Positions 22,236 to 47,374 of a DNA stretch of 64,000 nt are shown piece by piece. Source of the DNA: Candidatus Micrarchaeota archaeon (GTDB lineage: Archaea > Micrarchaeota > Micrarchaeia > Micrarchaeales > CABMGC01); NCBI GenBank assembly GCA_027319905.1, contig DAHVMJ010000002.1:389-64388 (forward strand). The letters are read 5' to 3'. Made by a program: the position numbers and the translations under genes. The notes under the pieces were generated by a model, which worked only from the letters and a program-made list of their open reading frames with translations, was not told where the DNA came from and did not search any database. The first letter of the stretch is position 1. Every line of letters begins with the position of its first letter.

Positions 22236-24869
22236 TTATGTATTCGTAAGCCCGAAAGCCTGCCACTCATTCACAGAAGAGGCTATCGAGGAAAGCCCTG
22301 GAGAGGTGTAGGTGCCTGAAAAGTAAGGATAAACGAATCCGCCCCCTGTAGCTATACCGTTGTTGCTGTTTCCGCTGTAGTCATTGGCGTTCCCATTCAG
22401 CGGCCACCAGCCGACTAGGTTCGAAGTGAACGGAATACCCGCCATGCCTTCCTGGTATAACTGCTGGATCTGCGTTCCGGAGAGCGCAGCGCTGTACATC
22501 TGCGCGTCAGCCACGCTGCCATTAAAGCTGTCTCCCGTGTTGGATCTGCTGCCTATGAATCCGTCTAGTCCAGTGCCCTGCAGTGATATGGCGTTGTAGG
22601 CTGCGCTGCTCGCAACCTGGTTGCCGTTGATCCATAGGCTCACCGCGCTCCCGTTGTATCTGCTTACCAAAAAGTACCAATTACCTAGCTGAATCGCGCC
22701 GGCCGCGCTTTTCGCCTCTGACCAGCAATTCGTAACCGTGCATACCCACGTCTCGGCTTCTTCGGTGCCGCTGTCATTCACAGCTATGATTGGATTTATT
22801 TCATCTCCCAACGCAGAGTCGGCGCCTAAGATCTCCTGCCTTCCGCTGTGGCTGCCACTGTTCCACTTTGCCCATATCGCCATTGTTGCTGCGGTTCCTT
22901 GGAGGAGGGCGTTGGAGGTCGCTATCGTTATGTTCGCTCCCCTCCCGTTTAGTTGCGCAGTCTGCACTGTGCCTCCCTGTGCTTCAAGCGGCATATACCC
23001 AAGATACAACTGCGGCAGTGTGTTAGACGCGCAATTGCCGTTTGATGTGCACGAGAGTATACCGGGTATCGGAGAGAGCTTCGTAGGCACGGGAGTGTTG
23101 AGTATGCTGTCCCTGCTGTAGTTCTGCAGCAGGTCGTACGAAACGCCCGTGGCTGCGCCATTGTTTCCCTGCCCGCTGTAGTCGTTCGCATTGCCATTCA
23201 GCGGCCACCAGCCGGCAACATTTGAGTTGGTCGGAGGCACTCCAGAGATGCCTTCTTGATAAAGCCTCTGGATCTCAATTGCCGAAAGGGTGGTGTTGTA
23301 AACCTGCACGCCAGAAATGTCGCCTATAAAGTCGTACGCGCTCATCTTCCCCAGACTGCTCCCGATGCTGAATGTGCCGTCGACGACACTCTCTGAGTAG
23401 GTGCTCCACGTTACCGAAGAGAGCCCGTTGACATATAATGTGCCCGTGGAAGGCCCCTGAACAAAGACAATCTGGGTCCAGCTATTTAGCGGTACTGAGT
23501 TCGACGACTGCGCCCCGGTCTGGGCCCAGCCGTTGACGTTTATTTTACCATCTGATTGGTATGCAATCTGTATAGAGTTCGAGCTGCTCCCTTCGTACAC
23601 GATTACATTGGCTGTGGAATAAGATGTGCCTGAGCCCAGCGCTTTGGGATATATCCACGCTACTATCGATATGCCGTGTTTGTTTAGTGACTGAAGACCG
23701 GGCATGCTCACATAGCTGCTGCCTCCGAACTGCCCGGCCTGCGTATTGTAGTTCGAGAAGCTGAAGATGCCGTTAGGTGACTGGGTATTGAAGCTTCCTT
23801 GGCTCCTTGACAAGTACGAGGAAGTGAACGGAGAAGCGAAGTAGTAGCCGTTGCTTATCGCGCTCTTCAGACCCTCTATGTCCAACGTTTCCAAAGCTGG
23901 CCCGTAGAGCAGTACCTTCGTTCCAGAAGGCATAGATTGCAGTATGTTGGAAGAGCTGGGGTAGATCAGGTAGGCCACGGTCGGGAGGGTCGAGGGTGCG
24001 ATATACGCTACAAGGCCCGCATAGCTGTTCTCGCAGCTCTCCAGACCTATGGCGTTGTACGTTTCGAGTATGATGTTTGATTCGAGCGCAGAGATCTTGG
24101 AAGGAATGGATGTGCACGAGGCGCCGCTCACCGAGTTGCTCGCAAGCCAGTATGTGGTTCCATACGCGTATGCAAGCACGTTTCCGCTCGTCGCTTGAGC
24201 ATTTCCGATAACACGCGTCAGGTTGCCAAGTCCAGAAAAGACCACAGGCCTGTAAATTCCCTGCTGGGCGTAGAGAAGGTCAGGGGTGCCGTTGAGCGAG
24301 ACAGTCGCGTTAACCGGTATGGTGTAGGTGTAGCTGACGCCTGAGACGTTGAACGATATCCTCTCCGTGTAAGAGACTGCAAGATGATACGGGTCTGCCT
24401 GGAACACGCTTGGTGTGCTCTCGTTTATCGATTTGAGCTGAGATGCGAACCCCAGAAGCGTGGCTACCGACGTGTTGTATGCCTTCAGCGTCAGGTTGCC
24501 CATGGAGTTCTGTGGGTATCCTGATGTGTCGTTAGGCAGTACCCCGTTGACCATAAGGTCAGAGAGGTAAAGGCTGGTGTTTGAGATGAAGTTCGATTTC
24601 CTAAGGTTTGGGGTAATCTCATAGTTTGCCAGCACTGCGATCGCCTTGCTTAGGCTCGATGCCGCGAACGCGCCCGCGCTGGCCTTCAGCGCCCCGGCAT
24701 AGTTGTTGGAGGTTGACGAGATCGTCAGCGACTGCGCTATGTTGTTGGAGCTTATGTTGAGCAGCGCAAACGCGAAGAGCTCCGCAAGCAAGAGCACGAA
24801 TATGATCAGCATGATGAGTGTCATCAGCTGACCCTTGCTCGATCCCAGTCCCATCGAACCTAGCTCCAT
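22236..24869 (-). CDS. Giant prepilin-like surface protein with two LamG modules
   Basis: Leader GSSKG|QLMTLIMLIIFVLLL. Two copies of GWWPLNGNANDYSG are each followed by a LamG_3-type core ending ..VQ(V/M)Y..LS..(E/Q)IQ.LYQEG. Confidence 0.75.
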   Translation of the reverse strand: MELGSMGLGSSKGQLMTLIMLIIFVLLLAELFAFALLNISSNNIAQSLTISSTSNNYAGALKASAGAFAASSLSKAIAVLANYEITPNLRKSNFISNTSLYLSDLMVNGVLPNDTSGYPQNSMGNLTLKAYNTSVATLLGFASQLKSINESTPSVFQADPYHLAVSYTERISFNVSGVSYTYTIPVNATVSLNGTPDLLYAQQGIYRPVVFSGLGNLTRVIGNAQATSGNVLAYAYGTTYWLASNSVSGASCTSIPSKISALESNIILETYNAIGLESCENSYAGLVAYIAPSTLPTVAYLIYPSSSNILQSMPSGTKVLLYGPALETLDIEGLKSAISNGYYFASPFTSSYLSRSQGSFNTQSPNGIFSFSNYNTQAGQFGGSSYVSMPGLQSLNKHGISIVAWIYPKALGSGTSYSTANVIVYEGSSSNSIQIAYQSDGKINVNGWAQTGAQSSNSVPLNSWTQIVFVQGPSTGTLYVNGLSSVTWSTYSESVVDGTFSIGSSLGKMSAYDFIGDISGVQVYNTTLSAIEIQRLYQEGISGVPPTNSNVAGWWPLNGNANDYSGQGNNGAATGVSYDLLQNYSRDSILNTPVPTKLSPIPGILSCTSNGNCASNTLPQLYLGYMPLEAQGGTVQTAQLNGRGANITIATSNALLQGTAATMAIWAKWNSGSHSGRQEILGADSALGDEINPIIAVNDSGTEEAETWVCTVTNCWSEAKSAAGAIQLGNWYFLVSRYNGSAVSLWINGNQVASSAAYNAISLQGTGLDGFIGSRSNTGDSFNGSVADAQMYSAALSGTQIQQLYQEGMAGIPFTSNLVGWWPLNGNANDYSGNSNNGIATGGGFVYPYFSGTYTSPGLSSIASSVNEWQAFGLTNT

Positions 24870-27028
24870 GAGTACACCCCTACTGCTACTGTATTGCTCG
24901 CCCCCGTCGTGTAGTTAACCACAGGCAGAAAGGCGCTAGCCTTCGATATCTGGTAGGCGTTGGAGAGGGCCTGAGACGTATATGCGGTTCTGACAAAACC
25001 GAGGCCTCCGACAGGGAAGCCGGTGTTATAGTTTCCATAATCATTTGTATCACCGCTCAGCGGCCACCAGCCGGCGAGGCCCGCCCCGCTCACAGGAGGG
25101 CCAGATATGCCTTCACGGTACAGCTGAGCCACCTGGCTTGTCGCCAGCGTGCTGGCATATACCTGTACATCCGCTATCTGCCCAGTGAATTTGCAGCCCC
25201 CGTCGGGCCACGCGCCTATGTAGGACGCCAGCCCGGAGGTAGGCGTGTCGAGAACATTGCCCGAAAGCGACCCCGTTGCCTTCTGCCCATTCATGTAGAC
25301 CGTTACGTTGCTCGTATCTTTTTGGTACGCGGCCGCGATGAAGGTCCACGTGTTCTTCGGTGCAGTCAGCGAGGAGACGTAATCGTCGCTGTTGCCAGCG
25401 AAACTCACCAGGCCGTTTGCGTTGAGTCCAAGGCCGCTGTACTGGCCAACGCCACCTCCGATGGTGGGTCCGTAGCCCGTTGCCATCTCCTGCCCGCAGC
25501 CGCCGTTGCTGTACGATGATACGTTTACCCAGGCAACAAGCGTTCTCGAGTTGGAGATTGTGGCGAATCCACGCGTTCCGGTCTCAACATATGCTGTCGT
25601 TCCATTGAAGTCTGCAGCCAGAACGGTGTTTGTGGACGGCGGGCCTGCGAAGAAGGTGTAGTTCGATGCAGGATATATGCTGTTCAGCAGCGCCTTCCCG
25701 CATCCCGACTGCCCGTTGAGATACATTGCCGCCACGGCTCCGAGCAGCGTGGATCCAGGCGGCGAATCGCAAGCGCCATAAGCCACTATTTTGTTGCTTG
25801 TTTCAACGTAGAGCCTGCCATAAGCGAGCGTCATCCGCGGGCGGAGCGTCACGCCAGAGGTATTGGCAAACCAGTATATTGTGCCCGTGCTCAGATTCTC
25901 CCCGGCGAGGCCGTTTGACCACAGCGTGTATACCATGGATCCGCTTACAGCGGGAGTGGCGTTGGTTATGCTGCTTCCGAAGTAAGACGGTACAGCAACG
26001 CTCCAGTAAGAGGTTCCGCTGGACGAGAGGGCCGCCACGCCGGCGCTGGTCTGGTACACTATGTAGTTGCCGTAGAGCGCCGCTCCTGTTACGGTGCTGC
26101 CCGTTCCTACCGGGAAGCCGCTTGCGACCGTGCCGTTTGTGTACGTGGCATTGGCGCTGCTTCCAGTTCCAAGATAGAACGTGCTGCCCTCAGAGCCAGC
26201 CACGCCTGTAGGAGAATTGCCTATAGCATACGCGTTGTTGGCTACCTGCTTTGCGCCTCCGCCAGTGAAGACTATCACGAATATGTTGTTCGTGGAGGTC
26301 TTTACCGCGAGATTTCCGCCCGCTATCGCCATGGACACCGGTATGGAACCGGTGTAGTTTGACCAATATGCTGTGCCGTTTGTCGCGTAGTACGCGTGCA
26401 CCCAGTTGTCTCCGCCTCCGAAGATCACCTGGTTGTTGTAGACCAGGAGAGGCGACGACACTGTTACGCTGCTGATCGAGTTAGTGCTCCATAAGATGTT
26501 CCCATTGTCCGCGTTCGCCGCGGTGAGGTTAGTCGCATTTGCATAGAAGATCATGCCTGACGCAAGCGCCGGGGTGCTGGCGACGTTGGATCTGGTGTTC
26601 GTGCTCCATACCGTTGCGTTGGTTGTTGCATTGACTGCGTAGAGCATCGAGTTGGCCGCGAAGTATATGTTGCCATACGCCGCTACCACACTTGTAGTGA
26701 TCGTGTTACCAGGCTTGAAGACGTAAGAGATGGTCGGATAGAGAGGGCCTATTGGGTTGCTGCCCTGCGCGTACGCGCTTCCGAGGAAGAGAGGCGAAGT
26801 CTCGTTTGCGCCCGCGTACTGGTTCACCAGCGCCTTTGCTATGAAGCTGCTATTCTGCACTGATGCAACTGTTGTGGATGCAAGATTGCTGAAGATCGTC
26901 TGCGCATTGGAGTAGTGCAGATTGTAAGGCGTTTGCGCGTAGTACTGGAAGAAGAGGAGCACAGAAACGCCAACAACGGTTATGACTAGCGCGAAGATCG
27001 CATCCATCGTGAATACTATCCCTTTCAT
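24860..27028 (-). CDS. Prepilin-like protein with a PQQ/BamB-like beta-propeller and a C-terminal LamG module
   Basis: Leader MKG|IVFTMDAIFALVI. Repeated ..A.NA.NG...W(S/T).. blades are present (NATVWSTN, NGNILWSTN, NGTAYWSN, GTIYWFAN). The LamG core ends IADVQVYASTLA..LYREG and is followed by GWWPLSGDTNDYG. Confidence 0.7.
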   Translation of the reverse strand: MKGIVFTMDAIFALVITVVGVSVLLFFQYYAQTPYNLHYSNAQTIFSNLASTTVASVQNSSFIAKALVNQYAGANETSPLFLGSAYAQGSNPIGPLYPTISYVFKPGNTITTSVVAAYGNIYFAANSMLYAVNATTNATVWSTNTRSNVASTPALASGMIFYANATNLTAANADNGNILWSTNSISSVTVSSPLLVYNNQVIFGGGDNWVHAYYATNGTAYWSNYTGSIPVSMAIAGGNLAVKTSTNNIFVIVFTGGGAKQVANNAYAIGNSPTGVAGSEGSTFYLGTGSSANATYTNGTVASGFPVGTGSTVTGAALYGNYIVYQTSAGVAALSSSGTSYWSVAVPSYFGSSITNATPAVSGSMVYTLWSNGLAGENLSTGTIYWFANTSGVTLRPRMTLAYGRLYVETSNKIVAYGACDSPPGSTLLGAVAAMYLNGQSGCGKALLNSIYPASNYTFFAGPPSTNTVLAADFNGTTAYVETGTRGFATISNSRTLVAWVNVSSYSNGGCGQEMATGYGPTIGGGVGQYSGLGLNANGLVSFAGNSDDYVSSLTAPKNTWTFIAAAYQKDTSNVTVYMNGQKATGSLSGNVLDTPTSGLASYIGAWPDGGCKFTGQIADVQVYASTLATSQVAQLYREGISGPPVSGAGLAGWWPLSGDTNDYGNYNTGFPVGGLGFVRTAYTSQALSNAYQISKASAFLPVVNYTTGASNTVAVGVYSWS

Positions 27029-27576
27029 CAGCTGACACCAAAACTTTCGTTCGTCCAGAGAAATATCTGCATCTTGACAGGTACGCCATTGAGCACAGCA
27101 GACTGCCTAGCTACCTGCACCGCATAAGGATTTCTCGTATAGGGGTACAGACCCATGCCTATGCTCGTATTGCTGTAGTTTATCTCTATGTACCAGTCGT
27201 AGCCCACGCCCAGCAGCGGCTTCGTGGCTTGGTACGTTATGCTGTTGTAGTTGGCCATCGCCATGAGCGTTATTATCTTATCCTGCGAGATCGCGCTTCC
27301 AGAGCCGGAGCCCAAACCTATGCTCACGTTCTGCCAGGTACCGACATCAATCACATTTACTGCTGAGTTCCAGTCCGATGGCGAGCCCGGTTCCAGTATT
27401 CTTGTCTGCAGGCTCTGCAGTTGTGCCTGCATGGTCTGCAAGCCGAAGCCGTAGGCTATGTTGTACTGGCTGCTCACGTTGACCCAGACGAAGGTGAGTA
27501 TAATTAGCGCGGACCCGAATATGATCATCGCGAAAATGACATCGAATGACCAGAACTGCGCTTTCATGGGAACCAA
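27028..27576 (-). CDS. Small prepilin-like protein
   Basis: Leader MKA|QFWSFDVIFAMIIFGSALIIL. 182 aa, operonic with the other prepilin genes. Confidence 0.65.
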   Translation of the reverse strand: MVPMKAQFWSFDVIFAMIIFGSALIILTFVWVNVSSQYNIAYGFGLQTMQAQLQSLQTRILEPGSPSDWNSAVNVIDVGTWQNVSIGLGSGSGSAISQDKIITLMAMANYNSITYQATKPLLGVGYDWYIEINYSNTSIGMGLYPYTRNPYAVQVARQSAVLNGVPVKMQIFLWTNESFGVS

Positions 27577-36940: not shown

Positions 36941-38055
36941 CGTATATACGTTAGATTTAAATGACTCTGTTACTAAAATAGTCACGATACTTATGAGGTT
37001 TCAATTTGCCAGAGGACAACAAGAAGAGTTTATCAAAACTTTCTTAAAGCAAGAGAGAGTATCCCTCACAACTGCCGCTAGGTTTCTCAGCGTAGGCAAA
37101 ACGACTCTTAAAAGATGGCTAAAAGAAGAGGTCACTCTTCCTGAAACCGCATTTCATACAATTTGCGTTAAAATGCCAGACTTAAGAATCTACAAAAAAC
37201 AGATAATAAAAATACTTCCGGATAATTGGGGTCAAATACAAGGTGGCAGATCGAGGGTTATTCAAATAAAAAACATTAACGAATATCTGAGTTCTGTAAG
37301 AGCTGCTAAAAATAAAAAAAGATTAGTGGCGGCACAAATAACAAAACGCAAGCTTAAATTCTCAAGCCAACTTCTCAACAATCTTATTGAAGATCACGTT
37401 GATCTAGAAGCACTATTAGCCACTTGTTTACTAACTGATGGTTCTCTGACTAGAGACGGTAACAGTTACAGAATAGGATACTATACAAAAGACCAAGCCT
37501 TGCGTAAATTCGTAAAAAGCCTGCTATTTGAGTTAAGCGCCTTTGTGCCTTCAGAAATTCTTACAAAAAAGAGCGTTTACGCAATCAGAGTAAGTGACTA
37601 TCGGCTAGCACAACAACTACTTAGATTGTCGCCGTCATATAAAAAGACAGCAAGGAACCATCAGACGATTAAAAGCTACTTGAAAGAGCGCCAACCTTCT
37701 TTGGCTTTCCTAAAAGAGGCAGATGAAAAAACGATGACCTGGTGCATACGGCTAGCCTTTTCTGCAGAGGGGTCCATCTCAATTTCTCAGAGCAACACTA
37801 TCGAACTTAATTTTGCCTGTTACCATCCTAAGTTGGCCAAGGAGTGGTTAGAGATTTTTAAAAACTACGGATTAGAAGGCCACATCGGCAGAGAAAAGAA
37901 ATCTTGGAGTGGAATTGATGGCGTTAGGGTCTACTCTCTGGCCTCTCTTAAGAATTTTGTCGGATTGGGAGGATTCCTGCCCGGAGTTGTAGTATCCAAC
38001 AAAAGCAAGCGTTATAAAGGCTTAGAGAAAAACGAGGTATTGAATAAAGCCGTAA
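36941..38055 (+). mobile_element. AT-rich insertion carrying a LAGLIDADG homing-endonuclease-like gene, bracketed by repeats of the tRNA-Ile 5' segment
   Basis: Composition is visibly A/T-rich relative to both flanks. It has a single ORF with its own TTTAAAT box and is flanked by direct repeats derived from the tRNA. Confidence 0.6.
36956..36962 (+). promoter_or_regulatory. TATA-box-like element for the LAGLIDADG ORF
   Basis: The centre of TTTAAAT lies about 34 nt upstream of ATG 36993. Confidence 0.35.
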
Positions 38056-38120
38056 GGGCCCGTAGCTTTCCTGTGTCTCGAAAACATGGGGCTGAAAGCC
38101 TGGTTGGAGCGTCCGACTGA
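36993..38120 (+). CDS. Double-motif LAGLIDADG homing-endonuclease-like protein with an N-terminal HTH
   Basis: Two LAGLIDADG-type motifs are present (LLATCLLTDGSL and IRLAFSAEGSI), plus an N-terminal HTH (SLTTAARFLSVGKTTLKRWL). The last 22 codons or so read through the tRNA-Ile sequence. The stop is the TGA inside the anticodon loop cTGAtaa. Confidence 0.7.
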   Translation: MRFQFARGQQEEFIKTFLKQERVSLTTAARFLSVGKTTLKRWLKEEVTLPETAFHTICVKMPDLRIYKKQIIKILPDNWGQIQGGRSRVIQIKNINEYLSSVRAAKNKKRLVAAQITKRKLKFSSQLLNNLIEDHVDLEALLATCLLTDGSLTRDGNSYRIGYYTKDQALRKFVKSLLFELSAFVPSEILTKKSVYAIRVSDYRLAQQLLRLSPSYKKTARNHQTIKSYLKERQPSLAFLKEADEKTMTWCIRLAFSAEGSISISQSNTIELNFACYHPKLAKEWLEIFKNYGLEGHIGREKKSWSGIDGVRVYSLASLKNFVGLGGFLPGVVVSNKSKRYKGLEKNEVLNKAVRARSFPVSRKHGAESLVGASD

Positions 38121-38158
38121 TAATCGGAAGGTCGGGAGTTCAAATCTCCCCGGGCCCA
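38056..38158 (+). tRNA. tRNA-Ile (anticodon GAU), interrupted in the D arm
   Basis: Acceptor GGGCCCG/CGGGCCC plus A73, anticodon stem TCCGA/TCGGA, loop CTGATAA, T arm GGGAG-TTCAAAT-CTCCC. There is either a 28-nt intervening sequence (38069-38096) between GCTT and AGCCTGGTTGGAGC, or the 5' exon lies at 36920-36940. Confidence 0.75.
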
Positions 38159-38226
38159 CTTTTCAAGCGAAAGAATAATAATGGGCGGAAAACAGGAAGA
38201 TGTAATTTCCGAGATTTGGGAGTTTT

Positions 38227-38949: not shown

Positions 38950-39228
38950 CTACAGAAAGTGGACTGCGATAAAGAGCATCAAGAAGTTCAGTGCCAGAAG
39001 GCCAGCGACCTTTAAGGTTCCAATGTCAGACCCATAGGACCTGCAAAACCTAATGTAGGCGCCACTTGTAGCTATCGAGAATAGCAAAGCAGCAGGCCAG
39101 TACGCCCAGAATCCGGTAAGTGCAAGGACAACAGAGAAAGTGGTTCCCAGACTGATTGAGAGGGCAGCGCTCATGGCGAACCCGTTCTCGACTATACTCT
39201 GCTTGTAGATTTTTTGCATATTGCGCAT
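38950..39228 (-). CDS. Small membrane protein (3 TMH), last gene of the eight-gene operon
   Basis: Hydrophobic 92-aa product. Its start overlaps the upstream stop. Confidence 0.5.
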   Translation of the reverse strand: MRNMQKIYKQSIVENGFAMSAALSISLGTTFSVVLALTGFWAYWPAALLFSIATSGAYIRFCRSYGSDIGTLKVAGLLALNFLMLFIAVHFL

Positions 39229-39410
39229 CAGATCACCATGTAGACGAGCAGGGATGCAAGGAATAGAACGATGAAGCCGAAGGCCTGCCTGTACACAGTG
39301 TCGTTCCTACTGCCTGCAACTGAGCAAACGAGAATGGCGGATATGTATGCGCTCGAGATCATGGCGCTGGCCTTCATCACCGCAACGTCAAATGGTATAA
39401 GTATGTCCAT
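39228..39410 (-). CDS. Small membrane protein (TM hairpin, 60 aa)
   Basis: Two hydrophobic helices, tightly coupled to its neighbours. Confidence 0.45.
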   Translation of the reverse strand: MDILIPFDVAVMKASAMISSAYISAILVCSVAGSRNDTVYRQAFGFIVLFLASLLVYMVI

Positions 39411-39411
39411 A

Positions 39412-39876
39412 CTATATTGTCTCTAAATCGAGCGAGTAACCGGCTAGATACTGGAGCAATACTCCAGACTCACCTCCGAAGTAAAATAAACGCCTGACTG
39501 GTTCTGTCGAATCACTGACGAATAGAACAAGTCGCGAATTGCAGGGCGGCGCAGCCATGTACGCGCTGCGTGAGTGCCCTTTCATGTCTGCCATGCCCAA
39601 CTTCAGGAATGCTACTCTCCTGATATTTTCCGCAGATTTGTTTTTGGGAGCAAGGCCATTTACAAGCAGCATGTCGTACGCTTCTCTCACAAATGCCTCT
39701 TCGCTTTTTGGCTCTAACCTTCCAGATGCAATTGAATCGGGATTCGGCAACATGCTCCCCGTGATTTCCGGGGCTACGATTGTTACGCGGTCTCTCACCA
39801 CAGCCACAGATTTTGCAACGATAACAAAAGCTATACCAAAAAGCACCGGCATGAACTGTAAAAGATAGCTCAACAA
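39412..39876 (-). CDS. N-terminally membrane-anchored protein (154 aa)
   Basis: Single N-terminal TMH (FMPVLFGIAFVIVAKSVAVV) followed by a soluble domain. Confidence 0.5.
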   Translation of the reverse strand: MLSYLLQFMPVLFGIAFVIVAKSVAVVRDRVTIVAPEITGSMLPNPDSIASGRLEPKSEEAFVREAYDMLLVNGLAPKNKSAENIRRVAFLKLGMADMKGHSRSAYMAAPPCNSRLVLFVSDSTEPVRRLFYFGGESGVLLQYLAGYSLDLETI

Positions 39877-39884
39877 GATGTTGC

Positions 39885-40568
39885 TCAGATTCTCACCAAG
39901 TTAAATGTGCCTCTTCCCGCGTTCACAACTCTGTAGCCCATACTCTCGGCTCCGTCCAACGCCTCCGTCACTTCCTTTTTCTCTATACCAAGCCTGCCAG
40001 CAATACTCTCGATACTGTAGTCAGTAAGGCCCGACAGCAAGACAGCCTTCAATACGACCCTTTTGAAATTCTTTTCTATTCTATCTCTCGCTTCCACAAG
40101 CGTTAGATTCTCGTTCATGACCGCGATGAGTCTCTTTGAGAGAATAATATCGGGCAGTTCCATACCGGTGTGTTTGCTCTCGCGCTGCAGCATATCGAGC
40201 TGCTGCTCCGCAATCGTCATTATCAGATATGGATAGACGGATCCGATTTCGATTTTGTAGCAGTCAGAGAGCGTCTGCATAACGCCCAGCAGTCTAAGCA
40301 TCGCTTCTTGGATGAAGCGCATTGGAGTGAGCCTGGAATAGATGCTCATGGAAATGCTTTCTTTGCCTAGCTCCAGAAGAAAGAAATGGTCTTCACCTTC
40401 TGCGGCACTCATCGAATATAGCAGTTTGGTTCCATCGCGTTCGAGCGTCATGCCGGGGTACGGTACCAGGCATCTTTTGATCTTGGCAAAGCCGGAGATA
40501 AGAACTGCGTTCACGCTTATGCTGCTGAACAAATAGTCTTTGTTCCTCATTCCACCAGCTGCGCTCAT
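39885..40568 (-). CDS. Cytoplasmic protein with a C-terminal winged-helix-like region (227 aa)
   Basis: No TMH. The C-terminus SIESIAGRLGIEKKEVTEALDGAESMGYRVV is wHTH-like. There is a 4-nt overlap with the ATPase gene. Confidence 0.5.
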   Translation of the reverse strand: MSAAGGMRNKDYLFSSISVNAVLISGFAKIKRCLVPYPGMTLERDGTKLLYSMSAAEGEDHFFLLELGKESISMSIYSRLTPMRFIQEAMLRLLGVMQTLSDCYKIEIGSVYPYLIMTIAEQQLDMLQRESKHTGMELPDIILSKRLIAVMNENLTLVEARDRIEKNFKRVVLKAVLLSGLTDYSIESIAGRLGIEKKEVTEALDGAESMGYRVVNAGRGTFNLVRI

Positions 40569-41677
40569 TCTTTCAACCTTGAAGACACTGCGATAGCAAA
40601 CGAATCTGCCAGCGCGTCCTCGTCTATTCCAAGCTTTCTCAGTACTCCAAGAAGTTTCCTGCCACGCGTCCCTTTGTCAAGGAGGGCTGCTATCATCACG
40701 GAAAGGTCAACATAACCATTCTTCTCTCCTGCATGCAGGGCTTCAGATGCGGCGCCTTCACCGCACACCTCTCTCATAGCGTCCTCCAGTTTCGATTTCG
40801 TTATCTCAAACCGCGTTTTGTCACCCGTTTTCAACATAAGTGTTTCCTCAAACTCAATCCCGTGCACCTTCTCTACAAGACAGAGTTCCATTTTCCCCGT
40901 GGCCAGCGACTGCATCACCATACAGCTGCCAACGCCCAACTCCTGTATCATTTCCACCTGCCCGTTTCCAAGGCCGTAGTTGGCAGCGAGCCTGCGCAAT
41001 CCCTGTCTGTTCTGCAACCTGAAGACGAAAATCGTGGCTGCATTCGAGAGCATAGCCAGATCCATGTCCTCTGCAAGCTGCGAAGAGAAGATGAGCCCGT
41101 AGCCATACTTCCTCCCTTCCCTGAGTAGCGATTGCAGCACCTTGCTGCCATCAAGTAGCTTCCAGGCCTCGTCTAGCATCACGAACACCTTCCTGTTATC
41201 CCCGCTACGCATGCGCATGTTCTCTATCACCTGACTCAGAACCTTGTCTGCAACGCTGACCCTTGATTTCTGATTCCTTTCCTCGGCAAGGTTAAGATAG
41301 AGCACTCCAGAGCCTTTTGCAGCTAGCGATTCTGCGAAGTTTTCCGAACACGTTCGTTTTTCTCCGATGAGTCTGACAAAATTCTCGTATTCTCCGGTGA
41401 AGTCAATCAGGGCTATGGTCGAGCTCCGTATCTCGGCGAGTTTCAGCATAAGGTTACGCATCAGATATGTCTTGCCGCTGCCCGTTATGCCGCATACGAA
41501 TATGTGGGGGTTGATTACGTTATCCAGGTCCAGAAAATACGGTAGCCCGCGCGTTCGCCCTATGAGAATTCCACTCTTTGCTGACTCCAAGGCGCGTCTT
41601 ATCTCTTGCGCCTTCAGATCGGGAAACCTGATGAGATCTGACGCCATGGAAACCTTTACGAATGAACCATCACTCAC
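40565..41677 (-). CDS. FtsK/HerA-superfamily P-loop ATPase, VirB4/CedB-HerA-like
   Basis: Walker A VCGITGSGKTYL, Walker B VFVMLDEAWKLL (DEAW as in VirB4/TrbE-type ATPases) and REGRKYGYGLIFSSQ (HerA-like). Confidence 0.75.
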   Translation of the reverse strand: MSDGSFVKVSMASDLIRFPDLKAQEIRRALESAKSGILIGRTRGLPYFLDLDNVINPHIFVCGITGSGKTYLMRNLMLKLAEIRSSTIALIDFTGEYENFVRLIGEKRTCSENFAESLAAKGSGVLYLNLAEERNQKSRVSVADKVLSQVIENMRMRSGDNRKVFVMLDEAWKLLDGSKVLQSLLREGRKYGYGLIFSSQLAEDMDLAMLSNAATIFVFRLQNRQGLRRLAANYGLGNGQVEMIQELGVGSCMVMQSLATGKMELCLVEKVHGIEFEETLMLKTGDKTRFEITKSKLEDAMREVCGEGAASEALHAGEKNGYVDLSVMIAALLDKGTRGRKLLGVLRKLGIDEDALADSFAIAVSSRLKE

Positions 41678-42405
41678 TCCAGATCACCTTCTGCTTCGAG
41701 TTCATTCAGTAGTCTCTCGCCCATGAGAATTTCGTGCTCCAAGCCAAGCGTTGACGAAAACGATCCAGATATAAAGCCCGCGTTCCTCACTGCCTCTCTT
41801 GCGGCTTCGGTCGCGCTCCAGGATTTTGCAAACGTCCGCAGCCGCATCTTCATTGCCAGTAGTTTTTCCCCGCGTACGCTGCGTATCTCATTATCTATCA
41901 CACTCAGTTCCCTCCTCAGCCCGTTGACCTTATCGTAATTCTTTGGGTCACTTCTCGCAATCTCTATCTCCTTTAGCCTCCTTCTCTCCTCCAGCCCATC
42001 GAGTACGCGACCGTGGTCCACGCTTCTCAGGCCCAGACTGAACTCAAAAGGAAAATCCGTTTTTGTGACCATCGCTTCGATATGCTCTCCGTTCCTCTCA
42101 GCCGCGCCGCCGCTCAGAAGCACGCACGACACCGCGACGTAACCATTGCTGGCCCTCTTCACCGCTGCCGCGAGATCATCACTCAGCGTGTAGCCATTGT
42201 ACACTTCTATGACCCTTCCTTTTTTCAGCAATAGGTTGTTCAAGATGTGCCCCGAGCGGAAGTAAACAGCTGCGACGAGCAGCAGCGCCGCAGATAACGC
42301 GGCAAGATAATAGCCGCCAGATACCAGCCCCAGCAAAAATGTGGCTGTGGCCATGACGTAGAAAGCATACGAATAAATTCTGTTATTGATTTCCCAGTCT
42401 AGCAT
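41674..42405 (-). CDS. Membrane-anchored protein (N-terminal TM hairpin plus soluble domain), possible VirB3/VirB4 N-domain equivalent
   Basis: Two adjacent TMHs (YAFYVMATATFLLGLVSGGYYLAALSAALLLVAAVYF). There is a 4-nt overlap with the downstream ATPase gene. Confidence 0.5.
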   Translation of the reverse strand: MLDWEINNRIYSYAFYVMATATFLLGLVSGGYYLAALSAALLLVAAVYFRSGHILNNLLLKKGRVIEVYNGYTLSDDLAAAVKRASNGYVAVSCVLLSGGAAERNGEHIEAMVTKTDFPFEFSLGLRSVDHGRVLDGLEERRRLKEIEIARSDPKNYDKVNGLRRELSVIDNEIRSVRGEKLLAMKMRLRTFAKSWSATEAAREAVRNAGFISGSFSSTLGLEHEILMGERLLNELEAEGDLE

Positions 42406-42409
42406 CTGA

Positions 42410-43411
42410 TCACAGGAGGCTCAGCTTTCCGAAGAAATTCCCAGCTCCAAGCAGTTCCGAAAGTTCTCGAATGGAGATGGCGGTTAGCATCAGGCTGAAC
42501 GCGGGCAGCACGAAAGTAGATACTATGAAATAAGCTATCGCGCTGAAGAGATAGCTGATGAGGTTGGAAAGCCGGACGGCAATCCCGCTTCCAATATTGC
42601 TCAGCTCTGCTACTATGCCTGTAGCGTTGTCTCCCTGCCCAGCATACGAGAGCGTACTGCTCTCTATCGCATTGAGATTGGCGGATAGCGTGGAGAGCGA
42701 TGTTTGGTTTGCAAGAAGTGAGTACTGACTCACTAACGACGCATTCATCAGATACGTGAGCGGCAGCACAACATACAAGCCTATGGTTAGCGCTATCAGA
42801 AAACTGCCCGCTTTTCTTGAAGGATAGAAAGAACGTAGCACAAGCCCGAGCGGAAGTAGTATGGTGAGCGCGCTTGCTGCTATGAATACCAGCACAGACG
42901 CCTGCACAGTAACGCTTACCGCCGCAGCGCCGAGCATTTGTACTGCACTCTGAATCTGAGCAAGCACAGGACCGAGGAAGCTTCTGAATATGCCAAGCGC
43001 CGCATAGAGAGATACCAAACCGGCTATGATGAGCGAAACAGAGCTTAGTATCGATGAGTGCTGCGTGCCAAGATACCGATAGGGCGCCGGTCCCACCAGG
43101 TAGTTGTACGCGAAACAGATTGCTGCATTGTACTGCAGGAAAGTGTTGCAGCTTATGCTAGTTCCCCTTGCCAGAGCCAGCGAGTTTACCAAAGACCCCA
43201 CAAGCCCTCCACTAGTGAACAACAGCAAGAAGCCTCCAACCAGTGCCCCGTTTACCAGCGATTGGAAGATCTCGTTCCTTCCAAACTCCTTGAACTTCTT
43301 TTCGTTAAGCGCGTAGCCCAAGCCCAACGCTATGCCTCCTATGGCGAGCATGATGCTCACAAGCAAGACGGATATGTTCAGGCCGTATCCCCCGAACGGC
43401 ATCGTCTGCAT
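42410..43411 (-). CDS. Polytopic membrane protein (at least 6 TMH), VirB6/CedA-like by position and topology
   Basis: 333 aa, hydrophobic throughout, with one Ser/Asn-rich loop of about 60 aa. Confidence 0.55.
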   Translation of the reverse strand: MQTMPFGGYGLNISVLLVSIMLAIGGIALGLGYALNEKKFKEFGRNEIFQSLVNGALVGGFLLLFTSGGLVGSLVNSLALARGTSISCNTFLQYNAAICFAYNYLVGPAPYRYLGTQHSSILSSVSLIIAGLVSLYAALGIFRSFLGPVLAQIQSAVQMLGAAAVSVTVQASVLVFIAASALTILLPLGLVLRSFYPSRKAGSFLIALTIGLYVVLPLTYLMNASLVSQYSLLANQTSLSTLSANLNAIESSTLSYAGQGDNATGIVAELSNIGSGIAVRLSNLISYLFSAIAYFIVSTFVLPAFSLMLTAISIRELSELLGAGNFFGKLSLL

Positions 43412-43415
43412 CTAG

Positions 43416-43793
43416 CTACACCGACGAATTGGTTATGTTCACAAGAAGATGGGTCGAAGCCAACGCGAGCCCGTTGGAGGCAACCGAGAGCACTGCCACT
43501 ATTACGGCCCCGATCAGTATGTCTATCGAGGTGGCGTGCAGGCTCGCCCTTTTCGTCGCTGGAAATAACTGTCCTATCGCATAGAAAATGCCTGCTAGTA
43601 TGAACAATATCGCGCTAAGCACGGGCCCCAGGTGTGCCAATAAGGTCTGAATATTTGTCAGCGTTGCCACAATGTCAAAGGATAGAGGAGCAGCATACGT
43701 TTTCGCAGGCATCAAAGCCAAGAGAAGCCACATAACCTTCGCGTACCGTTTAATCAGAGCCAGCCATCCGAGATCCAAACCTGCGGTTCCCAT
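43416..43793 (-). CDS. Small secreted or membrane protein with TrbC/VirB2-pilin-like architecture
   Basis: Signal peptide (MWLLLALMPAKTYA|APLS) followed by two hydrophobic helices joined by the short basic loop FPATKRASLH. Confidence 0.55.
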   Translation of the reverse strand: MGTAGLDLGWLALIKRYAKVMWLLLALMPAKTYAAPLSFDIVATLTNIQTLLAHLGPVLSAILFILAGIFYAIGQLFPATKRASLHATSIDILIGAVIVAVLSVASNGLALASTHLLVNITNSSV

Positions 43794-43796
43794 ATA

Positions 43797-43830
43797 TTTA
43801 CCTTAGGTAATGATTATTTACCTAAGTAAA
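43797..43830. promoter_or_regulatory. Paired palindromic boxes in the divergent intergenic region
   Basis: TTTACCTTAGGTAA (arms TTACCT/AGGTAA) and TTTACCTAAGTAAA (arms TTTAC/GTAAA) are 6 nt apart. They lie between the start of the eight-gene operon and a TATATAA element. Confidence 0.35.
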
Positions 43831-43900
43831 AGTATATAAGCTTTTCCGACAAACTGATAAATGACCATTGCGGTGTGGTCGAATGATAAGCATAAATATA

Positions 43901-43928: not shown

Positions 43929-44144
43929 ATGGTGAAGACAATAACTATAAAGACAGAGGTCTACAGGAAGCTGCTCAAAGAAAAAATGCCAAAGGAGAGC
44001 TTCAGCGATCTCTTTGAGAGGCTACTAGAAACAGCAACTCCGGCCGTAATTATGAAACGTATCCGTGGTTCAGTGGTGTGGAAGGACAAGGAGAAGCTTC
44101 TAGCAGATATTCGCTCTAAGAGAGCGGGGAGACGGTTTGAATGA
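43929..44144 (+). CDS. vapB: VapB-type antitoxin
   Basis: 71-aa protein starting MVKTITIKTEVYRKLLKEK. Its stop overlaps the start of the PIN gene (ATGA). Confidence 0.7.
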   Translation: MVKTITIKTEVYRKLLKEKMPKESFSDLFERLLETATPAVIMKRIRGSVVWKDKEKLLADIRSKRAGRRFE

Positions 44145-44512
44145 TACTCATAGACACGGATGCGCTTATTGAGATACTGGACAAGCACTCAGACGCAGGC
44201 ATGAGGCTGTCAGAGAAAGTAATCGCCAGCGGCGAAGAGTTTTGTACATCTGCCATTAATATGCACGAGATACTTTACGGCTACGTTAAATACTCGAAGT
44301 CTATTGACGAAATCCTGCTTCTTAGAGTACTTGAGTATACAAAAGCCGATGCGCTGCTCTCTTCCGAGCTAGAGGCGGCAATTCCAGGAAGAAGCAATGC
44401 AGAGTTGAGATCTGACGCAATGATTGCTGCAATAGCGATAAATCATGGCTGTAAGTTGCTAACTGGTAACCGAAAAGATTTCGAAAATTTCAAGAGCATC
44501 GAGTTTTTCTAA
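44141..44512 (+). CDS. vapC: PIN-domain toxin VapC
   Basis: The four-position PIN signature is present: ILIDTDALIE, MHEIL, RSDAMIAAIA and TGNRKDF. Confidence 0.85.
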   Translation: MILIDTDALIEILDKHSDAGMRLSEKVIASGEEFCTSAINMHEILYGYVKYSKSIDEILLLRVLEYTKADALLSSELEAAIPGRSNAELRSDAMIAAIAINHGCKLLTGNRKDFENFKSIEFF

Positions 44513-45260: not shown

Positions 45261-45803
45261 ATGAAGCTTAGACCCGGCAGGACAGTGCGCAAAATAAACA
45301 GCCAGGCGTGGGCGCGCTATTCTGTAAAGAAGCCCAAGAAGAATTACATCAAGGCGCTGCCGCGCACCACACTGCTCATCTTCAACATGGGGGTCAGGAA
45401 GCCTGGATACGATCTTGACCTCACGCTCAGGTCCAGGCAGAACGTGCAGCTGAGGTCAAACGCGCTCAACGCCGCCAGACTTGCGGCCAACATGTACCTG
45501 GAGCGCGAGATACCTGGTGAGTACTACCTCAGGATCATACCCTTCCCGCACAACGTGGTTCGCGAGAAGAAGTTCGCTACAGGCGCCGGTGCAGACAGAG
45601 TTTCACAGGGAATGACCCTCTCATTCGGCAAGCCCGCCGCCGTTGCGGCCAGGGTCTTCGAGGGCAAGCCGGTCTTCGAGCTCAAGACACACGCCGACAA
45701 CAAGGACATAGCCAGGGAGGCGCTGAGGCGCGCATCAGACAAACTCTCAGGCACCTACTCGATAAACCTCTCCGTGTTGCAGAAGCAGCAGACCGCAGGC
45801 TAA
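45261..45803 (+). CDS. rpl10e: 50S ribosomal protein L10e (uL16)
   Basis: RPGRTVRKINSQAWARYSVKKPKKNYIKALP...RSNALNAARLAANMYL is typical of L10e. Confidence 0.9.
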   Translation: MKLRPGRTVRKINSQAWARYSVKKPKKNYIKALPRTTLLIFNMGVRKPGYDLDLTLRSRQNVQLRSNALNAARLAANMYLEREIPGEYYLRIIPFPHNVVREKKFATGAGADRVSQGMTLSFGKPAAVAARVFEGKPVFELKTHADNKDIAREALRRASDKLSGTYSINLSVLQKQQTAG

Positions 45804-45823: not shown

Positions 45824-46747
45824 ATGAGGATACTTTTGCAGTTCCCCGAAGGGCTTAAGCAGGAGGCGCTGAAGCACGCGAAGAAACTGGAAGCTGAGGG
45901 TAACGAGGTCATAATATCAGCATCGCCCACTTTCGGCGCTTGCGATCTCGCAATAGACGAGGCGAAGAAGGTCGGGGCGGAGAAGCTGGTGCACTTCGGC
46001 CACGCCGAGTTCCACCACGTGGATTTCAACGTGGAGTATGTGCCATACACGATAGACGCCTCGCTTGACGTGCTGCCATCTTCCCTCGACCAGTTGAAGG
46101 GCTTGCAGACCATCTGCCTGATGACAACGATCCAGCACGTTCACCAGCTCGAACAGATCAGGCGGTTTTACGAGGAGAACGGCAAGAAGGTGCTGCTGAA
46201 CAGGCCAAACGGCTTTGCCAAGGTCAACGGTCAGATACTCGGCTGCGACGACGGCAACGTTATGGTGCTCGACAGGAGCGTCGACGCGTTCGTGTATTTC
46301 GGCGGCGGTATCTTCCATCCGCTCGGCGCTCTGCTGCAGACCACCAAGCCCTTCCTTGTTGTCGACCCGTTCCAGAACAGGGCGTATCGCATCGACGAGA
46401 TGAGGGAGAGGCACAGGAAGAGGAGCAGGGGCAAGATACTGGCATCGCTGAAGTCCAAGAACTTCGGGATACTGGTGAGCACGAAGAACGGCCAGTACAA
46501 CATGGTGCTGGCAAAGCTGCTGAAGAAGAAGATAGAGCAGAGCGGGCTTACCGCAGCAATATTGGTCTCGAACACGCTGGACTTCGACTCGCTCAACAAC
46601 ATGCTAGAGTTCGACGCGTTCGTGAATACCGCGTGCCCGCGCATAGCGATAGACGACACGGAGAGGCTGCGCAAGCCGCTGCTGAGCGCGAACGAGCTCA
46701 CCGAGGCGCTCAGGCTCATCGCCGAGACAAGGCTTGCCGCTCGCTAG
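45824..46747 (+). CDS. dph2: Diphthamide synthesis protein Dph2 (2-(3-amino-3-carboxypropyl)histidine synthase)
   Basis: LLQFPEGLK start plus three conserved Cys contexts (TFGACDL, ILGCDDG, NTACPRIAIDD). Confidence 0.8.
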   Translation: MRILLQFPEGLKQEALKHAKKLEAEGNEVIISASPTFGACDLAIDEAKKVGAEKLVHFGHAEFHHVDFNVEYVPYTIDASLDVLPSSLDQLKGLQTICLMTTIQHVHQLEQIRRFYEENGKKVLLNRPNGFAKVNGQILGCDDGNVMVLDRSVDAFVYFGGGIFHPLGALLQTTKPFLVVDPFQNRAYRIDEMRERHRKRSRGKILASLKSKNFGILVSTKNGQYNMVLAKLLKKKIEQSGLTAAILVSNTLDFDSLNNMLEFDAFVNTACPRIAIDDTERLRKPLLSANELTEALRLIAETRLAAR

Positions 46748-46792: not shown

Positions 46793-47374
46793 CTAAGAGA
46801 CCTTGGCCGTTATCGTCGCTATCTTTGCTGTGAGCATCGGGTTAGATCCGCCAGGCGCACCGCTGCTCAACGTGTAGTTCATCCAGAGAGAGCCGCTGAA
46901 GGTCGCGCCCACCGAGCTTGTTCCCATGGCAGGTCCCGCGCTCGTGTAGCAGCTAAGCCCGCTCACTGCAACAGTCTGCCCGCTTGTCAGCGAGAGTGCC
47001 CCTGTGGCAGGCCCGTTAGCAGGCGTCGCGGTAGCAGCGCCGGCGCTGCTCAGGTACACTAGCGCAAGCGTGTTGCTCGGAAGGCCAGTGCTGCCTGCAA
47101 CAGCGTCACATCCAAGCCCTATGTTGTAGAACGTCGAGCCAGTTGCCTGACCAAACGAGGTAAGCGAGAGGGTTCCCGAGGTTGTGAGCGATGGGTTGGT
47201 GCAGAGGTAGCCTGGTGCAGGTATGCAGTTCGTGCCAAGCAGCGTGCCTCCGCTGAATACTCCAAGGGAGAAGAGCGCTCCCAGGACCACGGCTATGATG
47301 AGTATGGCCCAGCCGTAGGTCATGAGGTACTCCATCGCGCTCTGCGCTTTCAACATTCTTCTATTATTTCCCAT
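46793..47374 (-). CDS. Short prepilin-like protein without a LamG domain (candidate major pilin)
   Basis: Leader LKA|QSAMEYLMTYGWAILIIAVVLGALF, followed by about 150 aa of Ser/Thr/Gly/Ala-rich sequence containing two Cys pairs. Confidence 0.7.
   Translation of the reverse strand: MGNNRRMLKAQSAMEYLMTYGWAILIIAVVLGALFSLGVFSGGTLLGTNCIPAPGYLCTNPSLTTSGTLSLTSFGQATGSTFYNIGLGCDAVAGSTGLPSNTLALVYLSSAGAATATPANGPATGALSLTSGQTVAVSGLSCYTSAGPAMGTSSVGATFSGSLWMNYTLSSGAPGGSNPMLTAKIATITAKVS

Follow-up and report, generated by a model that had tools for sequence, protein, structure and literature searches.

An eight-gene operon conserved across Micrarchaeota resembles a stripped-down, chromosomal relative of type IV secretion systems

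Type IV secretion systems (T4SSs) share one ubiquitous protein, the VirB4-family ATPase, which is built from an N-terminal domain and a C-terminal P-loop domain. In archaea, the Ced and Ted systems are domesticated T4SSs assembled from VirB2-, VirB6- and VirB4-like parts without a relaxase (PMC9905601), and both move DNA (PMC9905601, PMC11868833). The signal peptide of the pilin TedC is cleaved (PMC9905601), and CedB and CedD are membrane-anchored proteins that combine HerA-clade ATPase domains with N-terminal domains resembling parts of the VirB4 N-terminal domain; N-terminal domains of this type often carry transmembrane helices, and VirB3 and VirB8 are absent in archaea (PMC11868833). Here we describe an eight-gene operon on the minus strand of a 64,000-nt stretch of DNA from a Candidatus Micrarchaeota archaeon (the window, to which all coordinates refer). 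An earlier note, made from the sequence of this stretch, had assigned it to a small-genome archaeon, and the source organism is indeed a DPANN archaeon, probably a host-dependent one. How DPANN archaea acquire host material is a central question, and we know of no dedicated transfer machine defined in Micrarchaeota. We judge it reasonably probable that the operon encodes a chromosomal, stripped-down machine that descends from a T4SS, is akin to Ced and Ted and occurs Micrarchaeota-wide, and we regard it as a strong candidate for the apparatus by which these archaea exchange material with other cells. The pilin matches of the first gene product, the structural match of the third, the models matched by the fourth and the conserved gene order all support the minimal, non-classical, Ced/Ted-like apparatus that the earlier note had proposed.

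The operon consists of eight tightly packed minus-strand open reading frames (ORFs) between 43793 and 38950, named g1 to g8 in transcription order:

g1, 43416-43793, minus strand: 125 aa, VirB2-like prepilin
g2, 42410-43411, minus strand: 333 aa, polytopic membrane protein with ~6 transmembrane helices
g3, 41674-42405, minus strand: 243 aa, transmembrane hairpin (~2-50) followed by an alpha/beta domain (~70-240)
g4, 40565-41677, minus strand: 370 aa, P-loop ATPase of the FtsK/HerA/VirB4 superfamily
g5, 39885-40568, minus strand: 227 aa, cytoplasmic protein with a C-terminal winged-helix-like domain
g6, 39412-39876, minus strand: 154 aa (TTG start), N-terminal membrane anchor, fold not recognised
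g7, 39228-39410, minus strand: 60 aa, membrane protein with two hydrophobic helices
g8, 38950-39228, minus strand: 92 aa, membrane protein with two hydrophobic helices, the final operon gene in this genome

The junctions measure +4 nt (g1/g2), +4 (g2/g3), -4 (g3/g4), -4 (g4/g5), +8 (g5/g6), +1 (g6/g7) and -1 (g7/g8). Public gene calls (GCA_021823435.1, contig JAKANZ010000004.1) contain the identical eight genes and differ solely at g6, called there as a 146-aa protein whose start lies 33 nt after the g5 stop; together with the ORF coordinates, they confirm the co-directional, overlapping or near-abutting arrangement noted earlier. Hydropathy profiles reveal two helices behind a signal-peptide-like N-terminus in g1, about six segments in g2 and a hairpin at the start of g3; g4 and g5 lack hydrophobic segments, g6 has the single N-terminal anchor that had been proposed for it, and g7 and g8 have two helices each. 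The GC content of the operon (~0.50) is slightly under the window average.

The product of g1 has the make-up of a VirB2/TrbC-type pilin: a predicted signal peptide (ending ..AKTYA, with AP following), two hydrophobic helices at ~48-80 and ~83-114, and a short basic loop between them. In the family alignment, the signal peptide is variable and the mature region highly conserved, including the loop that joins the two helices (GQLFPxxKRA) and an invariant N-x-T sequon (N119) at the C-terminus. Two Pfam pilin models each match about half of the 66 family members, namely TrbC/VirB2 (36 members, best 4e-6) and T4SS_pilin PF18895 (34 members, best 3e-7), and any other Pfam family matches at most three. 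When the g1 profile was compared by hhalign with 13 reference proteins, the R388 pilin TrwL/VirB2 was the sole match (P=5.7e-4). Both the TrbC/VirB2-pilin layout suggested for this protein and its relation to VirB2 at the profile level are therefore borne out. The hairpins of g1 and of the g2 N-terminus can also be aligned by hhalign, at a level that is not significant (P=0.09). A VirB2-VirB6 and a CedA1-CedA relationship have reportedly been described. Across 19 loci, g1 is 56-81% identical to the window protein, as against 59-90% for the ribosomal protein uL16, and is more conserved than the ATPase. Such conservation, near that of uL16, is unusual for a surface filament subunit.

By its sequence, g4 is an intact ATPase of the FtsK/HerA/VirB4 superfamily, equivalent to the C-terminal domain of VirB4 or CedB. 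The motifs reported for it earlier are present, comprising Walker A (GITGSGKT), Walker B (MLDEAW within VFVMLDEAWKLL) and REGRKYGYGL, and the key residues of GITGSGKT, VFVMLDEAWKLL and REGRKYGYGL are invariant across 25 homologues. The superfamily placement likewise holds, since AAA_10 (48.1 bits, threshold 27.5), DUF87 (44.7 bits) and TrwB_AAD_bind (40.3 bits) all score above their Pfam thresholds. CedB is the best NCBIfam model for all 25 family members (best 5e-19), and the TraC, CD1110 VirB4-like, VirB4_CagE and HerA_antiphage models also match each of the 25, all with scores far under the equivalog cutoffs (g4 itself scores 52.9 bits against CedB, cutoff 700, and 38.9 bits against CedD, cutoff 600). 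Models for NurA-associated HerA score lower than CedB, at 33 and 30 bits. Among the references tested by profile comparison, the best match to g4 is the 630-aa VirB4-like/TrbE-like ATPase of the Sulfolobus conjugative plasmid pNOB8 (NC_006493; hhalign probability 97.3%, E=2e-11, 214 columns), which differs from g3/g4 in being plasmid-borne and a single polypeptide.

Only about 45 residues precede the P-loop region of g4, and the gene overlaps g3 by 4 nt. Sequence searches gave no match for g3. Its AlphaFold2 model (predicted local distance difference test, pLDDT, 78.9) agrees with the hydropathy profile in placing a transmembrane hairpin ahead of an alpha/beta domain, which bears out the hairpin and soluble domain read from the sequence. 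Searched with Foldseek against the PDB, this model retrieved VirB4 of plasmid R388 (TrwK) at ranks 1 to 14 without exception (7o42, 8rtd, 8rtb, 7o43, 7o41; E 7.6e-5 to 1.4e-2, probability 1.00, 153-173 columns), and the first unrelated match followed at E=0.048. The matched part would correspond to the VirB4 N-terminal domain, given that g3 has no P-loop (the Foldseek output carries no target coordinates). Because the g3 model matches VirB4 and g4 resembles CedB and VirB4-like ATPases, the two look like one split, membrane-anchored VirB3-VirB4-like unit, and we read them as a VirB4 equivalent recognisable at the level of fold and superfamily, with g3 as the N-terminal and g4 as the C-terminal part. 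The earlier suggestion of a split VirB3/VirB4- or CedB-type ATPase thus gains support from both the TrwK match and the uniform preference of the g4 family for the CedB model.

Next to the pilin gene, g2 encodes a polytopic membrane protein that we consider a candidate channel or platform on account of its position, topology and conservation, and an analogue of VirB6 in position only. Its family is a large one, with 2466 representatives clustered at 50% identity (E<=1e-3). The invariant positions include two Cys residues in an outer loop (C88 and C99) together with several of Gly, Pro and Arg; further features of g2 are a loop with the conserved motif LRxFYPxRKxG and a long hairpin of helices bearing N-glycosylation sequons. 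The AlphaFold2 model is confident (pLDDT 78.9, predicted template modelling score 0.71) and all-helical, with very long helices. Links to other families were sought at several levels. The family hidden Markov model (HMM), run against the full library, returned solely family members among the best 150 and no bridge to a known family; Pfam scans of 68 members plus 37 distant members and NCBIfam scans of the same 68 gave no link to VirB6; the profile retrieved from PDB sequences only spurious matches to ABC-transporter transmembrane regions; and hhalign against TrwI alone gave no signal. In another Micrarchaeota genome, two divergent g2 paralogues stand side by side (P0382/P0418, that is MBI5158570.1/MBI5158571.1, HY992_00440 and HY992_00445), so the family is open to tandem duplication of the kind that CedA and CedE underwent.

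Several results weigh against descent from a T4SS. The window's own g1 scores only 18.9 bits (E 0.0018) against Pfam TrbC, under the 27.9-bit threshold, and its profile retrieves no chain from PDB sequences, even at E<=10. The match of g3 to VirB4 is structural only, with a TM-score of ~0.38 over the whole query and a root-mean-square deviation of ~6 Å, and hhalign finds no sequence signal between g3 and either TrwK or the N-terminal region of the pNOB8 protein (P=0.088 for the latter). As the g4 domain scores HerA models about as well as CedB (PADLOC HerA, 64.8 bits), the ATPase domain alone cannot separate HerA from VirB4. The operon has no relaxase, coupling protein or nuclease, nor any other gene with an obvious part in DNA processing. 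Finally, g2 has no detectable similarity to VirB6, TrbL or CedA in Pfam or NCBIfam HMMs; its Foldseek search of the PDB, in a copy that includes R388 structures with VirB6, gave a best E of 0.12 and no T4SS entry among the 50 matches listed, and hhalign against a VirB6 profile (a nine-sequence MPF_T alignment with sequences from PLSDB) gave P=0.27-0.59. Since every g2 test (Pfam, NCBIfam, PDB profile, Foldseek and hhalign) was negative, we dropped the claim that g2 is a VirB6 homologue and kept the analogy of position: of the VirB6/TrbL/CedA-like place given to it earlier, the polytopic topology and the location beside the pilin gene stand, and homology to a VirB6/TrbL-type channel, within the sensitivity of these tools, does not.

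The three small proteins at the end of the operon have no detectable relatives beyond their own families in Pfam, NCBIfam or profile comparison; specifically, no link was found between g6 and VirB8 or VirB5, or between g7 or g8 and VirB2 or VirB3. For g7 and g8, the description as hairpin membrane proteins of 60 and 92 aa holds by hydropathy, and no relation to pilins was found. At 35 of the 84 related loci described below, a ninth gene lies downstream and encodes a second, soluble ATPase of ~735 aa (for example L013:10843-13095, L023:10862-13096 and L025:10832-13006), its start sometimes 4-8 nt past g8; it is absent from the window. This protein is related to g4 in the ATPase domain (hhalign probability 95.7%) and weakly matches the CD1110 VirB4-like model, CedD and HerA_C; no signature of a type IV coupling protein (T4CP) was found in it, and its N-terminal domain is unrelated to g3. 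Together, g4 and the 735-aa ATPase recall the CedB/CedD pair.

The comparison with described systems follows these lines. Judged from its published description (PMC9905601), the Ted system of the Thermoproteales, with the pilin TedC, the membrane protein TedA and the VirB4-like ATPase TedB, shares with the operon a chromosomal location without a relaxase in archaea that have no outer membrane, a VirB2-like pilin with a signal-peptidase-I signal peptide (predicted for g1), an adjacent gene for a polytopic membrane protein and a VirB4-type ATPase. Unlike Ted, which belongs to the Thermoproteota, the DPANN operon has its VirB4 equivalent in two overlapping genes and anchored in the membrane, a g2 without detectable VirB6 similarity (TedA is reported to match VirB6 by HHpred), and the additional conserved genes g5-g8, whereas the VirC1/ParA, Rad50 and HerA neighbours of Ted loci are missing. 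The Ced system of the Sulfolobales (CedA, CedA1, CedA2, CedB, CedD and CedE) likewise combines small two-helix membrane proteins with a polytopic one, and uses a membrane-anchored ATPase with a HerA-clade domain and a VirB4-N-terminal-like domain; its two paralogous ATPases have a counterpart in many Micrarchaeota loci. In contrast to Ced, the operon encodes the N-terminal domain and the ATPase as two polypeptides, and the signal peptide predicted for g1 is cleavable, whereas CedA1 reportedly is not processed. At 53 bits against a cutoff of 700, g4 is not a CedB orthologue, and no NCBIfam model matches g1, g2, g7 or g8 at E<=1 (whether that library contains CedA, CedA1 and CedA2 was not checked); set beside CedB, CedD, CedA and CedA1/A2, the operon is similar in architecture and its genes are not orthologous.

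Bacterial systems offer a second frame of reference. The mating-pair formation class T (MPF_T) T4SSs, such as R388 Trw and Agrobacterium VirB/D4, resemble the operon in having a VirB2-type pilin, a VirB4 fold composed of an N-terminal domain and a RecA-like C-terminal domain, and a broadly similar order of pilin, membrane parts and ATPase; the hairpin ahead of the g3 domain also recalls VirB3 and VirB3-VirB4 fusions. They differ in that no VirB1, VirB5, VirB7-11, VirD4 or relaxase was found in the operon and no VirB6 homology was detectable, and in that the operon is chromosomal and vertically inherited rather than plasmid-borne. The chromosomal T4SS of Patescibacteria, or candidate phyla radiation (CPR), is similar in biological setting (PMC12102498): it occurs in ultra-small, host-dependent organisms, in most genomes of the lineage and usually without a relaxase, and contains VirB4 and VirB2-like pilins, the latter recognised by the two Pfam models that also match the g1 family (PF04956, PF18895). 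Unlike the operon, the CPR system is bacterial, nests in the MPF_FATA VirB4 clade and has recognisable VirB6, VirB3 and VirB8, whereas the VirB4 of the Micrarchaeota set is divided in two and its accessory proteins are unrelated.

To gauge conservation, one genome per GTDB species was scanned for g4 relatives, and iterated HMMs built from the eight window proteins were used to search the ORFs of 84 loci, of which at least 80 come from different species-level genomes. A g4 relative is encoded in at least 244 of the species-representative genomes. Named homologues of g4 are assigned to Micrarchaeota, Micrarchaeia, Micrarchaeales or, in a few cases, 'Marsarchaeota', and the best 80 loci are labelled Micrarchaeota, 'uncultured archaeon' or 'Marsarchaeota', with one exception: L065 (DATJLP010000007.1), which has the full g1-g5 set and is labelled Candidatus Acidoferrum (Acidobacteriota), is probably a mis-binned Micrarchaeota contig. 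Across the 84 loci, matches were found for g1 in 73, g2 in 77, g3 in 82, g4 in 84, g5 in 78, g6 in 52, g7 in 27 and g8 in 26. They share a strand throughout, keep the same order in all but one locus and mostly overlap or are a few bases apart, a regularity well beyond chance, and g7 occupies the same position in all 27 loci that have it. The arrangement is therefore conserved in related genomes, as an ordered g1-g5 core in most of the 84 loci. Contigs with ATPase identities of 56% and 47% retain the same eight genes at near-equal sizes, adjoining the same uL16 and diphthamide synthase genes. Where uL16 is retained upstream (19 loci), the percent identities of g1-g5 to their counterparts in the window rise and fall with that of uL16 (Spearman 0.71-0.85). 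In IMG/VR, two weak partial g4 relatives were the only ones found, and PLSDB plasmids gave partial matches only, at 26-35% identity. With its housekeeping neighbours, its co-divergence with uL16 and its near-absence from IMG/VR and PLSDB, the operon looks, from these sequence comparisons, like an old, vertically inherited chromosomal trait of Micrarchaeota and not mobile cargo. It also lacks the marks of a conjugative T4SS, which is borne on a plasmid or an integrative and conjugative element and comes with a relaxase and a VirD4-type coupling protein; no relaxase or T4CP was found among the eight products or within ~10 kb, in agreement with the view that this is not a classical conjugative system.

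Conservation extends to the g1 promoter, where sequence reading, supported by the relatives, gives the following elements:

43798..43846, minus strand: promoter and operator region
GAAAAG, 43846-43841, minus strand: element of the g1 promoter similar to the transcription factor B recognition element (BRE)
TTATATA, 43839-43833, minus strand: TATA box of the g1 promoter
TTACTTAGGTAA, 43829-43818, minus strand: palindromic box 1
TTACCTAAGGTAA, 43810-43798, minus strand: palindromic box 2, ending 5 nt before the g1 ATG

Thus, two copies of a 12-bp palindrome, TTACTTAAGTAA, stand behind the BRE and TATA elements. The TATA and two-box layout recurs upstream of g1 in 11 relatives (L001, L003, L005, L007-L011, L013, L015 and L073), and in 47 of 69 loci a box with at most two mismatches is found close to the start of g1, where 0.0074 would be expected per window of equal size, an excess of about a hundredfold over background. 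Only one match with at most one mismatch occurs in the entire window, and no other consistent box location was found across the related loci. Conservation of the box at the g1 promoter suggests dedicated transcriptional control, and the pair is probably the operator of a dedicated regulator. One possible candidate for that regulator is g5, which could alternatively be a substrate-binding factor. The g5 profile retrieves from PDB sequences the DeoR helix-turn-helix (HTH) protein 7bhy (E=0.0019) and the MarR protein 3nrv (E=0.008) over residues ~148-216, and HTH Pfam matches are scattered among the family members. This winged-helix signal, weak but consistent, fits the earlier description of a cytoplasmic protein with a winged-HTH-like end, as does the lack of hydrophobic segments.

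We infer from these observations how the parts might be assembled, what g2 and g5-g8 might contribute, what might be carried and in which direction. The g1 prepilin would be exported by Sec and processed by signal peptidase I, and the resulting 91-aa, two-helix pilin would gather in the membrane with its glycosylated C-terminus outside the cell. By docking the g4 ATPase ring to the membrane, g3 would complete one split VirB3-VirB4-like motor, which may extract and polymerise the pilin, drive a substrate across the membrane, or both. Together with g6-g8, g2 may form a lineage-specific membrane platform or channel in the role played elsewhere by VirB6, CedA or TedA. The resulting pilus or conduit would join the Micrarchaeon to another cell and carry a macromolecule, by analogy with Ced and Ted most likely DNA. 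Expression would be governed by the palindromic operator pair overlapping the promoter, possibly via g5.

The nature of the cargo is where the most serious alternative arises. The same T4SS-derived machine might carry something other than DNA, serving as a symbiont-host interface for effector delivery or for uptake of host RNA, nucleotides, lipids or proteins, a possibility that we hold to be real and on the unlikely side. It draws on the phylum-wide conservation of the operon in reduced genomes, on the lack of a relaxase or DNA-processing gene in it, and on the pilin, whose conservation nearly equals that of uL16 and therefore suggests a constrained core function. In Patescibacteria, moreover, relaxase-less chromosomal T4SSs are widespread and reported to be essential for epibiotic growth (PMC12102498), and putative T4SS pili have been seen at a parasite-host interface where the parasite feeds on host RNA (bioRxiv 10.64898/2026.06.21.733656). 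However, the operon includes no gene for an effector, adhesin or transporter, and Ced and Ted, its nearest relatives among the characterised archaeal systems, transport DNA. A bolder version of T4SS descent, to which we give a similarly low weight, would make the operon the long-sought conduit of DPANN symbiosis in Micrarchaeota, essential and phylum-wide, which uses g2 as a new channel protein family replacing VirB6 to draw in host nucleic acids or other macromolecules that the symbiont is unable to make, and which either arose independently of the Patescibacteria T4SS or is deeply shared with it. Transport could also be missing altogether, and g1 could form a purely adhesive or structural filament for attachment or biofilm. 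A pilin and a VirB4-like ATPase are enough for T4SS pilus biogenesis (general T4SS knowledge; review PMC12624023), no coupling protein was found in the window, and the invariant glycosylation sequon at the exposed g1 C-terminus would suit surface recognition. We nevertheless think a filament without substrate passage improbable, in that a second ATPase from this superfamily is encoded at about 40% of the related loci, which suggests translocation, and the genomes already encode type IV pilin-like proteins for adhesion (for example 46793-47374, as read from its N-terminus).

Least probable, to the point that we would be surprised by it, is that the operon is a HerA-type DNA repair or anti-phage module, or the remnant of a conjugative element or virus. 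Besides the PADLOC HerA match given above, g4 matches mad8, NCBIfam HerA_antiphage, solved HerA-like chains and two PHROGs, of which one carries a large-terminase annotation, and in one relative an integrase lies downstream of the operon. Yet none of the seven partner proteins of g4 matches a PADLOC model, and a defence system was rejected given that PADLOC matches the ATPase only. HerA-NurA and HerA-defence systems pair a HAS-barrel HerA with a nuclease or effector (NurA, Sir2 or DUF4297); no HerA partner protein for the operon was found in PADLOC, Pfam or NCBIfam, nor was any gene for NurA, Sir2, a capsid or a relaxase. Membrane proteins make up five of the eight products, which together with the missing partners contradicts a defence as well as a repair function; g3, moreover, matches a VirB4 structure. 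Against an element or viral remnant stand the constant chromosomal neighbours, divergence in step with uL16, the scarcity and partial nature of the IMG/VR and plasmid relatives, and the lack of a relaxase, integrase or capsid gene, and the PHROG matches are confined to the ATPase; a mobile element was accordingly rejected as well.

Descent from a T4SS, the reading that we favour, places the operon in the class of T4SS-derived, chromosomally domesticated systems, to which it would add a VirB4 divided over two genes, a novel family of candidate channels, accessory proteins that are likewise new, an operator conserved among relatives and occurrence throughout a phylum of host-dependent archaea. 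In the NCBI pipeline, certain homologues of g4 already bear the name 'type IV secretory system conjugative DNA transfer family protein' or 'DUF87'; where a name is given for any of the other seven proteins, it is 'hypothetical'. A full-text literature search found no published description of such a cluster in Micrarchaeota or other DPANN; the nearest report concerns a VirB4/TraG-like domain in giant nanohaloarchaeal surface proteins, which have a different architecture (PMC10266531), and the Ced/Ted paper does not mention DPANN. The operon therefore offers a concrete, conserved candidate gene set for material exchange in DPANN. After Ced/Ted in Thermoproteota and the T4SS in Patescibacteria, it would extend the known range of domesticated conjugation machinery to a third lineage, one that is deeply separate and has a reduced genome. 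It would also provide a natural example of a VirB4 whose N-terminal and ATPase domains are encoded apart, and g2 draws attention to a large, unannotated family of membrane proteins as a possible substitute for VirB6.

The surroundings of the operon in the window include the following genes:

VapBC pair, 43929-44512, plus strand
uL16, 45261-45803
diphthamide synthase (Dph2), 45824-46747
Cdc48, 8673-10829

Further neighbours are an Fe/Mn superoxide dismutase, translin, an OGG glycosylase and a class II aminoacyl-tRNA synthetase. The VapB/VapC (PIN) toxin-antitoxin pair lies directly upstream of the operon in divergent orientation and is common to only two or three relatives. On the downstream side, a 375-aa ORF (36993-38120, plus strand) with a LAGLIDADG/WhiA-like domain runs 33 nt into tRNA-Ile(GAT) at 38088-38159, and in L001 it is a tyrosine integrase that lies downstream of the operon; the flank therefore looks variable. 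Very large ORFs (877, 722, 182 and 1132 aa) occur at 22236-30962 (minus strand) and 35362-36882 (plus strand), the 1132-aa product having Laminin_G_3/lectin-type matches in public gene calls. An exosortase/archaeosortase-like membrane protein (PF09721) is encoded close to them, and the group may possibly represent surface adhesins and a sorting enzyme. The 193-aa ORF at 46793-47374 (minus strand), mentioned above, has an N-terminus like the class III signal peptide of archaeal type IV pilins (..KAQSAMEYLMTYGWAILIIAVV..); it has no Pfam match, its assignment as a pilin comes from this reading of the N-terminus, and it is found near the operon in eight loci.

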